Sequence record: PV654517
From: Escherichia phage vB_ECOLIGBLB0003
Reading direction: 5' to 3' (one strand)
Length of the DNA: 64,000 bases
The notes under the pieces: model-generated
Database searches by the model: none
Seen by the model: the letters and a program-made list of their open reading frames with translations, nothing else
Told to the model about the DNA's origin: nothing
Part shown: positions 43,834-44,189 of the stretch, piece after piece
Layout: each line of letters starts with the position of its first letter
Numbering within the stretch: position 1 is the first letter of the stretch
Position numbers and translations under genes: made by a program

Positions 43834-44189
43834 TGCCTGCGCAAGCCCTCAAGGGGAACATAGGTTTTTGGATATTTAACGACCAGGATAACCATAAACC
43901 CGTCATCATACCTTATAGCTCTTATCTGTTGCACACCGTTAGCTTAAAGGTTCCGGGTTCGATTTCTCGAGGATAAGATATATACTGATGGATATATAGG
44001 CCTTGAGGCGTACTCCCGATTGGCCATCACCTCGGGGTAGCATGCACTTGCCGCTATAAGAATAACATTCAAGAGGTACACCGTAAAACTGCCGGGGTCT
44101 TAAAACTATAATGATTCGCAAATCATTAATCAGACAGTTCGACGGCTCCTCGATTTTAGCTCACACTAAGGCAGTGAATCTCCAATAAA
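43834..44189. other. 356-bp non-coding GC-rich island between the 30.9-like gene and rIII
   Basis: No ORF with a credible SD on either strand; visibly more G+C-rich than the flanks (not counted); contains GGGTTCGATT (tRNA T-arm-like) and a CTTATC/GATAAG inverted repeat. Confidence 0.4.

Follow-up and report, generated by a model that had tools for sequence, protein, structure and literature searches.

The interval 43834-44189 is the intergenic spacer between rIII and 30.9 of a T4-like phage, and it was analysed within a window of 64,000 nucleotides, the whole stretch of DNA available from Escherichia phage vB_ECOLIGBLB0003. Alignment of this spacer with T4 and RB6 reveals a clean indel of 153 nt whose flanks are otherwise near-identical, and the empty site of T4 can be placed to the nucleotide, between GAATGT and ATGATGACG. 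The inserted segment, hereafter the element, contains a structured RNA unit, and its surroundings are listed here in the direction of transcription of the two genes.

44579..44586, minus strand: T4-type late-promoter core TATAAATA, an exact match, upstream of rIII
44065..44189, minus strand: spacer from the rIII stop codon to the element, common to T4
44158-44183, minus strand: module X, in the rIII-side spacer
44109-44129, minus strand: A+T-rich hairpin, in the rIII-side spacer
43912-44064: insertion of 153 bp relative to T4 and RB6 (alignment with both)
43912..44060, minus strand: structured RNA unit of 149 nt, from P0 to P0' (covariance model and helix map)
43807..43911, minus strand: 30.9-side spacer modules, outside the element and identical in T4 and RB6
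43863-43911, minus strand: motif B, in the 30.9-side spacer
43842-43856, minus strand: hairpin C, in the 30.9-side spacer
43807-43840, minus strand: hairpin D, weaker and terminator-like, about 98 nt downstream of the element
43580..43611, minus strand: strong intrinsic terminator, after 30.9 and downstream of the element

Covariance model R1, built for the element, has one match in the window, at 43908-44070 on the minus strand, with a score of 191 bits. The confinement of the unit to 43912-44060, its status as an insertion relative to T4 and its folding on the minus strand all lay beyond the view of the initial annotation. The order of the element and motif B varies by genus, the element being upstream in some and downstream in others. 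Module X shares TTCACTGCC with what we take to be the CRISPR type I-F repeat; mimicry of that repeat was considered and set aside informally, as the repeat hairpin is not conserved.

The interval had been singled out as a G+C-rich island devoid of a credible reading frame, and both observations stand. The G+C content reaches 44.1% in 43834-44189 and 46.4% in the 153-nt element, against 35.8% in the window, which places interval and element alike within the top 2-2.5% of equal-sized windows. No credible open reading frame is present in 43834-44189. Over the 163-nt span of the model, moreover, stop codons interrupt all six frames in every one of the 32 distinct homologues, and a small protein-coding gene was rejected since no open frame is kept among these variants. 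Several GenBank records carry hypothetical proteins annotated over the element RNA; these annotations are probably spurious.

The late-promoter core is the only exact match to TATAAATA in 43500-44600, and from its position it would drive transcription through rIII and the element into 30.9. Searches in the element and just upstream of it turned up no sigma-70-like, late (TATAAATA) or MotA-type site, and no terminator belonging to the element was found either. No strong intrinsic terminator was found between the element and 30.9, where the weaker hairpin D lies. Given the common orientation, the late promoter and the lack of a strong terminator ahead of 30.9, we infer that the element is transcribed as part of the rIII-to-30.9 message. 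A free trans-acting RNA normally needs a promoter and a terminator of its own, unless it is processed out of a longer transcript.

Fold of the element RNA

Sequence comparison assigns to the element RNA a predicted fold made of a linker-less four-way junction (P0, Pa-P3, P2 and P1), a three-way junction and a kissing loop. Its parts are as follows, all on the minus strand.

44053..44060: 5' strand of the closing stem P0 (CUUAUAGC), pairing with 43912-43919 (GCUAUAAG)
43999..44052: arm Pa-P3
44050-52 with 43999-44001: Pa, GGC with GCC
44042-49 facing 44002-07: conserved internal loop of Pa-P3, AAGUGCAU facing CUCAAG
44032-41 with 44008-19: P3, with loop L3 at 44020-31
44024..44029 with 43986-43991: kissing loop, L3 half UGAUGG with L2 half CCAUCA
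43979..43998: hairpin P2, 43992-98 with 43979-85, with loop L2 at 43986-91
43920..43978: P1 domain, a three-way junction
43972-78 with 43920-26: P1, UCUUAUC with GAUAAGA, corresponding to the CTTATC/GATAAG repeat
43959-70: P1b hairpin, with a GAAA tetraloop at 43963-66
43954-58 with 43933-38: P1c, with a 15-nt loop at 43939-53
43927-32: joiner GCAACA of the P1 domain

The fold was evaluated on 32 distinct sequences, giving 47 pairs and 1,503 pair cells, 99.4% of which form pairs. Both sides are altered in 24 of the 47 pairs, in a shallow family (all members at least about 70% identical) where Pa and P1c consist almost wholly of invariant pairs and independent covariation events are modest in number. 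None of 500 shuffles matched the observed pairing and covariation values, and controls in which the partner strand was slid were 26-42% paired.

The evidence is distributed over nearly all helices. P0 shows double changes in four of its five modelled pairs (UA/AU/CG, AU/GC and others) with 96.9% of cells paired; its sequence varies between genera, and the flanks are otherwise unalignable across genera. In P3, where the real pairing joins CCCGA to covarying UCGGG, double changes affect 6/10 pairs and 99.1% of cells are paired, and in P2 the corresponding values are 4/7 and 99.6%. Pa is nearly invariant and thus uninformative on covariation. The P1 domain is paired in 100% of cells in each of its three helices, with covariation in two of the four pairs of P1b, which also has seven U·G cells, and a single A-U to U-A swap in P1c. 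The P1b loop is of the GNRA type (GAAA or GUAA) in most variants, a minority having UAAA or longer loops. P1 itself covaries in 4/7 pairs.

The kissing loop comprises 6 bp, paired in 100% of cells, with covariation in three pairs (CG 23 / UA 9; GC 28 / AU 2 / UA 2; GC 30 / AU 2) and a duplex energy of -7.7 kcal/mol. Lengthening P2 by a C-G pair was considered and rejected, because the bases concerned vary in concert with the P3 loop and belong to the kissing interaction. About 45 unpaired nucleotides of the element are nearly invariant.

The folding strand is assigned to the minus strand because G·U cells number 48, at 11 positions, against no A·C cell, because the GNRA loops of most variants occur on the minus strand only, and because neighbouring genes are all co-oriented with the element, those of a Grimontviridae carrier included. 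A plus-strand fold built on an 8-bp helix CCTTGAGG/CCTCGGGG with G·U pairs was shown to be wrong by the alignment.

This strand assignment bears directly on the leading idea of the initial annotation, a degraded tRNA gene or tRNA-like element. Like phage tRNA genes, the element forms a small, structured, G+C-rich non-coding island in an A+T-rich T4-like genome, and the likeness extends superficially to a T-arm-like string, GGGTTCGATTTC, present at 43955-43966 on the plus strand as had been reported, and to a 7-bp stem resembling an acceptor stem, seen as the CTTATC/GATAAG repeat, which was correctly located (43921-43926 and 43972-43977) and proves to be the covarying helix P1. However, the string lies on the non-folding strand. 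Its complement on the RNA strand takes in four of the five bases that make up the 5' side of P1c, together with the 3' side of P1b and its GAAA loop. The bases of the string are thus paired otherwise, within covarying P1b and P1c, and usually enclose a 4-nt loop; the covarying pairs (UCGA/UCGA, CCGA/UCGG, CUGA/UCAG) cannot be reconciled with a 7-nt T-loop. The element has no cloverleaf, ARAGORN finds no tRNA in the whole window, and the tRNA and tmRNA models have no match in 43400-44600 at E<=10. A decaying pseudogene, furthermore, would not exceed the neighbouring genes in conservation, as the element does. A tRNA origin can therefore be considered virtually negligible. The alternative of a small structured RNA, which had also been raised, is the one supported, although the unit measures 149 nt, is more elaborate than envisaged and lies on the strand opposite to the one that was read.

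Distribution, conservation and transfer

A 135-nt core of the element was found at 408 places in 407 phage records, at 80-100% identity; Shigella phage SP18, Escherichia phage JS10, Yersinia phage fPS-2 and Klebsiella phage KP15 are examples of carriers. This recurrence, and the covariation in the helix formed by the inverted repeat, place the feature well outside what chance would produce. The carriers are almost all T4-like phages of Enterobacterales, the element lies downstream of rIII wherever the context was inspected, all but one of the 407 records hold a single copy, and the covariance model gives one match per genome. Natural empty alleles exist in T4, RB6 and others, and a third allele has another cassette, about 47 nt long, at the junction where the element is otherwise inserted. 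Even near-identical phages differ in having or lacking the element. Among IMG/VR rIII loci the element is present in 15/40, and it is absent at loci whose rIII is 100% identical to that of the window.

Searches beyond these phages were negative. Comparison of the element with 5,426 E. coli genomes gave no match, nor did a scan of 185,579 GTDB species genomes for one of its conserved motifs, 19 bases long; 72,556 plasmid records yielded only two 30-nt matches at 90% identity (E about 0.4), taken as chance. On these searches a bacterial origin of the element was rejected. Motif-pattern scans of IMG/VR returned 43 non-T4 contigs (L027-L065, L124-L129) that all failed the covariance model and were attributed to chance, as were L015, from the first IMG/VR motif scan, and L076, from a metagenome motif scan.

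One carrier stands apart. The Grimontviridae phage PKM.Lu.22.1, with an unrelated genome of 76 kb, contains the element at 84.5% identity over 142 nt, and nothing else in its whole genome resembles the 64-kb window at the nucleotide level. The helices are retained there through compensatory changes. No rIII or 30.9 homologue was detected in this phage by tblastn at E<=1e-3; the upstream neighbour encodes an SSB-like protein, recognised only from its acidic C-terminal tail, and the downstream neighbour a sigma-70-family factor. The element is exchanged between phages as a self-contained module and has passed into this unrelated family.

Of 10 lineages measured, nine show the element to be better conserved than the genes on either side. 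In these nine, the core is 83-98% identical to that of the window, compared with 70-84% for rIII and 67-87% for 30.9; in the tenth, L106, the core is 71% identical because of insertions. The RNA is under strong purifying selection, with compensatory changes. The initial annotation had also considered a remnant of horizontally acquired DNA. Acquisition is upheld by the absence of the element from T4 and RB6 and its presence in an unrelated family, whereas the idea of a remnant is not, since the element is under such selection. Whatever its function, it is dispensable, as T4 does without it.

Presence or absence at one site, with the 47-nt cassette as a third allele, transfer between phage families and the inverted-repeat ends formed by P0 could also suggest an element acting as DNA, either a miniature transposable element or a single-stranded DNA structure serving recombination or replication. 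Nevertheless, the terminal inverted repeat differs by lineage and covaries like an RNA stem, no target-site duplication is seen at the junction between T4 and the window, no transposase was found, and the copy number stays at one in nearly all records. The excess of G·U over A·C cells, the GNRA loops and the covarying kissing loop all speak for RNA, and homologous recombination in the conserved flanks suffices to explain the patchiness within T-even phages. We regard a DNA-level role as highly improbable.

Relation to known RNAs

Covariance-model scanning of both strands, as the initial annotation had suggested, gave no tRNA or Rfam match: none of the 4,227 models of Rfam 15, tRNA and tmRNA included, has a match in 43834-44189 at E<=10 on either strand, and the whole window holds no gathering-level Rfam match. 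Text and exact-sequence searches of a library of papers returned no description of the element. Judged by these sequence searches, the element RNA belongs to no described family, either among the Rfam 15 models or in the literature searched.

Resemblance to host RNAs was examined by k-mer comparison with E. coli RNase P RNA, 16S, 23S, 5S, tRNA-Glu and 6S RNA, and with the presumed ssrA region for tmRNA, the gene being unannotated in the stretch used. No significant similarity or complementarity indicative of mimicry or antisense action emerged from these E. coli RNAs. The element and M1 RNA have in common GUGCAACAGA, GAACCCGG, GAUGGCC and CAAGGCC, an overlap with p about 0.001 by 7-mer count and p = 0.08 when independent segments are counted (4 vs 1.85 expected). 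A fragment or mimic of RNase P RNA was rejected, as the shared segments are not collinear, stand in other structural contexts and are accompanied by no Rfam match.

Among mobile modules of these phages, the PeSL regulatory cassettes of T4-type phages, said to have been described by Arbiol, Comeau and Krisch in 2010, reportedly consist of an early promoter and a stem-loop in about 50 bp. They resemble the element in being short non-coding modules of variable T4-type regions, shuffled between positions and phages. In contrast, the element lacks a sigma-70-type promoter, has three times their length and possesses a constrained, complex RNA fold.

Possible functions of the element RNA

We consider it somewhat probable that the element is a self-contained structured RNA, carried on the minus strand within the rIII-to-30.9 transcript and autonomous through its fold. 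Its action would depend on the tertiary structure and would not consist in regulating rIII or 30.9, since the fold is kept in unrelated gene contexts and its own closing stem insulates it. As to mechanism, the one judged most likely, tentatively so, is that the element serves as an accessory RNA domain of a polycistronic transcript, early or late, and would bind a macromolecule conserved in the Enterobacterales hosts. RNA polymerase, a ribonuclease, the ribosome or a defence protein are candidate partners, and binding would change the fate of the RNA's own transcript or a host function. An obligatory ribonucleoprotein with gp30.9, a very basic protein of 58 residues, was rejected: PKM.Lu.22.1 carries the RNA without a detected 30.9 homologue, and in T4 the gene is present although the RNA is not.

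The main alternative to an accessory domain would be a protein-independent catalytic role. Specifically, a new class of self-cleaving or otherwise catalytic RNA would process the polycistronic message of rIII and 30.9, with its active site in the compact fold that the four-way junction and kissing loop build. The architecture is compatible with this, as the four-way-junction hairpin ribozyme and twister-sister share with the element a linker-less four-way junction with a tertiary contact between adjacent arms. Like small ribozymes in general, the element combines many invariant junction and loop nucleotides with a closing stem of free sequence, and it is distributed in their typical manner, patchy, in phages, intergenic, in sense orientation within operons and independent of gene context. 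The enzymes encoded by T4-like phages include a polynucleotide kinase/phosphatase and RNA ligases, whose substrates are 5'-OH and 2',3'-cyclic-phosphate ends. However, known ribozyme classes gave no covariance-model match at E<=10, a cleavage-site signature could not be recognised, and with 135-150 nt and an extra three-way-junction domain the element is larger than most small self-cleaving ribozymes. Furthermore, known classes are phylogenetically broad, whereas the element is single-copy and its shallow family is restricted to one phage gene pool. Catalysis is a candidate property, and this explanation seems unlikely to us, less so than those that follow.

The setting of the element within transcription units brings to mind HK022 putL/putR and the Bacillus EAR, cis-acting elements of about 70-120 nt that lie inside phage or other operons, in sense orientation and upstream of terminators, and whose sequence conservation is ascribed to contact with the host transcription machinery, an analogy that may extend to the element. 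Acting in cis in the manner of these RNAs, it would modify RNA polymerase for processive antitermination, or block ribonucleases and stabilise the transcript, which would then survive the hairpins and terminators downstream. Indeed, the element has no promoter of its own and always lies within a transcription unit, upstream of a strong intrinsic terminator; at 12/12 loci such a terminator occurs 58-404 nt downstream of the sense-oriented element, at 290-404 nt in every T4-like lineage examined and at 58 nt in PKM.Lu.22.1, where the sigma-factor gene follows. The very high conservation across phages of many enterobacterial hosts would also fit a conserved host machine. The association with terminators is weak evidence, though, because terminators are common in these genomes, and T4 and RB6 have the same hairpins and the same terminator without the element. 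No sequence or structural similarity to put or EAR was detected, nor any likeness to an Rfam family, and we hold antitermination or transcript stabilisation to be quite improbable.

A riboswitch or another cis-regulator of the downstream gene 30.9 is very unlikely. Such a role would accord with the fact that 30.9 follows the element in those T4-like carriers whose context was inspected, with the succession of element, terminator and gene in PKM.Lu.22.1, and with an aptamer-like multi-helix junction and conserved unpaired core; in purine and lysine riboswitches, as here, the junction helices are locked by Watson-Crick kissing of about 6 bp. Unlike these riboswitches, the element has neither a consistent class of downstream gene, a sigma factor replacing the undetected 30.9 in PKM.Lu.22.1, nor a clearly recognisable expression platform; hairpins and terminators do lie downstream, these also occur in T4 without the element, and no alternative pairing of P0 with such a platform was seen. 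Riboswitches lie behind a promoter, whereas the element sits between the genes of an operon and matches no Rfam riboswitch. The distance to the next start codon ranges from roughly 75 to nearly 200 nt across lineages, and other modules occupy this stretch. Hairpins C and D, which lie there, occur in T4 too, where the element is missing, and phages that lack the element have an intact 30.9.

Returning to the self-contained RNA, we see a possible, still doubtful, case for the element being the first known representative of a new class of functional RNA, either catalytic or a fold-dependent decoy or effector directed at a host machine or a defence protein. It would be a protein-free module of roughly 150 nt spreading between families of virulent enterobacterial phages.

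Few viruses have been studied as thoroughly as the T-even phages, and this RNA has nevertheless gone unnoticed, because T4 lacks it. It bears the hallmarks of specific action, namely a compact tertiary fold, near-invariant unpaired nucleotides, a conservation exceeding that of the neighbouring proteins in most lineages compared and transfer as a bare module. If catalytic, it would add one more class of ribozyme. Should its target be a host factor or a defence protein, phages of the therapeutic type that infect Klebsiella, E. coli, Enterobacter and Shigella would possess an RNA-only device for host takeover or counter-defence.

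A non-coding insertion between rIII and 30.9

The window comes from a T4-like phage, and the genes around the rIII-30.9 spacer all lie on the minus strand:

44587-44922, minus strand, gene 31
44190-44438, minus strand, rIII
43615-43791, minus strand, 30.9, with the start used in T4 and relatives
43172-43504, minus strand, 30.8

The interval 43834-44189, which the initial annotation had described as a GC-rich non-coding island, is exactly the rIII-30.9 spacer. This description was borne out: an ORF check found no credible reading frame, and G+C content is 44.1% against 35.8% in the window, within the top 2.5% of equal-size windows. 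The motif GGGTTCGATTTC and the CTTATC/GATAAG repeat are indeed present, at 43955-43966 and at 43921-26 and 43972-77, respectively. A mechanical 30.9 ORF runs up to an ATG at 43833 (72 aa; 43615-43833), an extension unused in T4; in T4 and relatives the start is at 43791 (MAKQAKAK..., 58 aa), with a Shine-Dalgarno-like AAAGAGAA upstream. The product is small and very basic, and belongs to PHROG 1427 and to no Pfam family.

In a BLAST comparison with 50,697 phage records, most T-even phages match the interval at its two ends only, and a block of about 135 bp at its centre matches, by itself, T4-like phages of Klebsiella, Enterobacter, Citrobacter, Edwardsiella, Erwinia and Aeromonas at 80-96% identity. 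When aligned with T4 and RB6, the flanks are essentially identical and 43912-44064 stands out as a clean indel of 153 nt, with 'GA' at this place in T4; with filters off, the covariance model of the element finds no match in either genome. In other genera the flanks of the core do not align with the window on either side, and the core lies downstream of a rIII homologue in all T4-like loci for which the gene context was looked at. A search of 5,426 E. coli genomes did not find the element, nor did a 19-base motif taken from it occur in a set of 185,579 prokaryotic species represented by a single genome each. Among 72,556 plasmid records there were just two 30-nt matches (90% identity, E about 0.4), taken as chance. 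Known carriers are virulent phages of Enterobacterales and, in one case, a phage whose recorded host is an Aeromonas. One record, PP355766.1 (Klebsiella phage vB_Kpn_AM_K4, 288,685 bp, labelled Straboviridae), has an ordinary Klebsiella T4-like rIII region and exceeds its relatives in length by about 120 kb, which may mean that the assembly is concatenated or chimeric.

Fold, strand and selection

An alignment of 22, later 37 copies (32 distinct) was assembled from GenBank phages, IMG/VR and metagenomes. The resulting model, placed on the window, is as follows:

44053-60 with 43912-19, minus strand, helix P0
44050-52 with 43999-44001, minus strand, helix Pa
44032-41 with 44008-19, minus strand, helix P3
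43992-98 with 43979-85, minus strand, helix P2
43972-78 with 43920-26, minus strand, helix P1
43959-70, minus strand, hairpin P1b with a GAAA loop
43954-58 with 43933-38, minus strand, helix P1c
44024-29 (L3, loop of P3) with 43986-91 (L2, loop of P2), minus strand, kissing helix

Standard pairs fill 99.4% of the 1,503 pair cells of the 32 distinct sequences, in an alignment (A5) that was fitted to the model and for a family that is shallow. Both sides change at 24 of 47 pairs, Pa and most of P1c being invariant and hence uninformative for covariation. None of 500 column shuffles attains any observed measure, and pairing falls to 26-42% when the partners are slid by 1-3 columns. All cells of the kissing helix are paired, and three of its six pairs vary (C-G/U-A; G-C/A-U/U-A; G-C/A-U). 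P0 is unrelated in sequence from genus to genus and always keeps its pairing, for example CUUAUAGC/GCUAUAAG in the window, UAAAC/GUUUA in Klebsiella phages and AACAGC/GCUGUU in PKM.Lu.22.1, an unrelated phage described below. P0, Pa, P2 and P1 meet in a junction without linker nucleotides, and about 45 unpaired nucleotides of the element are near-invariant. On the window sequence the consensus structure has an energy of -39.2 kcal/mol, to which the kissing duplex adds a further -7.7; the unconstrained minimum is -43.1.

A first impression that the fold lay on the plus strand rested on a helix later shown to be wrong. On the minus strand, G·U cells occur at 11 positions of the final structure, 48 in all, and A·C cells at none, so that the plus strand would have 48 mismatches. 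The P1b loop is GNRA (GAAA or GUAA) in most variants, on the minus strand only, with a minority of UAAA or longer loops, and neighbouring genes are co-oriented with the element in every carrier. A T4-type late-promoter core, TATAAATA, lies upstream of rIII at 44579-86 (minus strand), no promoter-like site was found within or just upstream of the element, and a strong intrinsic terminator (43580-43611) follows 30.9; for these reasons we infer that the element is transcribed as part of the rIII-30.9 message. Between the element and 30.9, at about 98 nt downstream from the former, there is also a weaker terminator-like hairpin, D, after which comes AUUUUCAU.

In nine of ten lineages compared, identity with the window is 83-98% over the 135-nt core, versus 70-84% for rIII (70-89% at the protein level) and 67-87% for 30.9; in three of these nine lineages (L105, L107 and L109) the core exceeds 30.9 marginally or not at all. 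In the tenth lineage, L106, insertions reduce core identity to 71%. Substitutions are for the most part either compensatory or located in one of two tolerant spots, namely the P1b loop and the central part of the P1c loop; the variant L019 has an additional hairpin there. No variant has an open frame across the 163-nt span. One or two 'hypothetical proteins' are annotated over the element in GenBank records such as PP925831.1, MZ753803.1, ON528740.1 and PQ657792.1 (XNO93090.1), and these calls are probably spurious, since no frame is conserved and the substitutions are compensatory for RNA pairing.

The T-arm-like motif had also suggested a tRNA or tRNA-like element, and this reading did not survive. 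ARAGORN detected no tRNA or tmRNA in the whole window, and a permissive Rfam 15 search of 43400-44600 (E<=10, both strands) gave no match within the interval. The CTTATC/GATAAG repeat is helix P1, in which four of seven pairs covary, and the bases complementary to GGGTTCGATTTC comprise four of the P1c 5' strand together with the 3' strand and GAAA loop of P1b; the motif's likeness to a T-arm is an accident, and a tRNA remnant is barely conceivable. The alternatives offered alongside, a small structured RNA or horizontally acquired DNA, were both right in substance: the stems covary among related phages on the minus strand, and the element is a clean indel relative to T4 and RB6 with a further copy in PKM.Lu.22.1.

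At gathering threshold, Rfam gave no match in all 64 kb. Three weak matches in 43400-44600 all concern the terminator and leader that follow 30.9. The sub-threshold one to the Rhizobiales sRNA Atu_C8 (43576-43659, minus strand; 31 bits against a gathering threshold of 50, E = 4e-4) is merely the strong intrinsic terminator after 30.9 (GAGGACUCC-UUCG-GGAGUCCUU-U6), near-identical in most T4-like lineages examined and replaced by an equivalent in the remainder. A lead to RNase P RNA (common GUGCAACAGA, GAACCCGG, GAUGGCC and CAAGGCC) was rejected: a segment-based test gave p = 0.08, the segments are not collinear, and their structural contexts differ.

Exchange of spacer modules

The element occupies 15 of 40 rIII loci of IMG/VR, and some loci without it encode a rIII protein 100% identical to that of the window. 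At one junction, near-identical phages carry three alleles: empty, element, or an unrelated cassette of about 47 nt. This cassette, ACTATCACGCGTCAGAAAAAGGTTATCTGTCTAAGTCGTGGTTG, occurs in other Tequatrovirus and Mosigvirus phages exactly at the insertion junction (window 43911/44065; loci L081 and L083, about 2875-2925, also L089, L092, L094 and L096), and includes GGTTATCTGTC, which resembles part of motif B.

Motif B (GTATGATG...GGTTATCC...CGTTAAATA..CCAAAACC; 43863-43911, minus strand) is a second conserved non-coding block, found in the spacer of T4 and of distant genera (L003, L005, L105, L106), and might serve as a processing signal or be promoter-like. Relative to this block, the element is upstream in Tequatrovirus, Mosigvirus, the Citrobacter-phage lineage (L101/L099), Erwinia phage Cronus and Aeromonas phage PS49, and downstream in phages of the Klebsiella type. 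Hairpin C (43842-43856; GUACCC-loop-GGGGCUUG), small and with conserved flanks, occurs in the spacer of all genera examined (L003, L004, L101, L105, L106, L109), before or after the element. The overall impression is of a spacer made up of RNA modules that have been shuffled.

The Grimontviridae phage PKM.Lu.22.1 (76 kb) has one copy (158 bits), flanked by a gene of the sigma-70 family and by a SSB-like gene, assigned solely by the acidic C-terminal tail of its product; a strong terminator follows 58 nt downstream of the copy. The element is the sole nucleotide similarity of this genome to the 64-kb window, tblastn (E<=1e-3) found no rIII or 30.9 homologue in it, and the helices are kept through compensatory changes. 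A search with this variant found no further carrier outside Straboviridae. A DNA-level mobile element would suit such transfer and the presence or absence at one site; given the strand asymmetry, the GNRA loops and the covarying kissing helix it is very improbable.

Module X (AGGTGATTCGCTACCTTAGTGCGGCT, 27 nt) is identical at 26 of 27 positions between a Mosigvirus (L091, 2755-2780) and PKM.Lu.22.1 (L006, about 1945-1971, minus strand), and is therefore a second small module, co-transferred or independently shared. Its order is swapped, about 100 nt upstream of the element in the Mosigvirus and 15 nt downstream in PKM.Lu.22.1; the window has a diverged copy (44158-44183). Furthermore, phi92-like phages (145-149 kb), which are not known to be T4-like, contain a T4-type 'empty' spacer at 98-99% identity, plus the 3' part of rIII (NC_023693.1 (phi92), 53492-53694; LC739536.1; L119, L120), an indication that they and T-even phages recently exchanged this region.

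Candidate functions

Neither a regulator dedicated to rIII or 30.9 nor a ribonucleoprotein with gp30.9 fits well with an element that is independent of gene context, is insulated by a closing stem of free sequence and has been transferred as a bare module. The modelled compact tertiary fold and the near-invariant unpaired nucleotides argue for a specific molecular interaction or catalysis rather than a simple terminator or stabiliser hairpin. The host range of the carriers fits a conserved host partner, or may simply show how far this phage gene pool extends; an accessory role, such as host takeover or counter-defence, would be in keeping with the element's dispensability and patchy occurrence.

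Context independence, tertiary fold, host restriction and dispensability with patchiness set the ranking of readings. First, and tentatively as regards this specific mechanism, an autonomous accessory RNA would act via its fold by binding a conserved macromolecule. A new self-cleaving or catalytic RNA, suggested by analogy with four-way-junction ribozymes, would be unlikely. The element did not qualify for any of the known RNA or element classes it was compared with; the sole agreement was an antiterminator-type position upstream of a terminator, in genomes where terminators are frequent. A put/EAR-like cis antiterminator or stabiliser would share this position, and is improbable. Kissing-loop riboswitch aptamers are, with the ribozymes, the nearest architectural analogies; a riboswitch would be quite improbable. 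By context, the element comes closest to put/EAR and to the shuffled non-coding cassettes seen in T4-type phages.

No Rfam family corresponds to the element, and the literature searched contains neither its sequence nor its description. On comparative sequence evidence it is a real, strongly supported structured RNA family, apparently undescribed, and the 'empty site' of T4 offers an immediate genetic handle on it.
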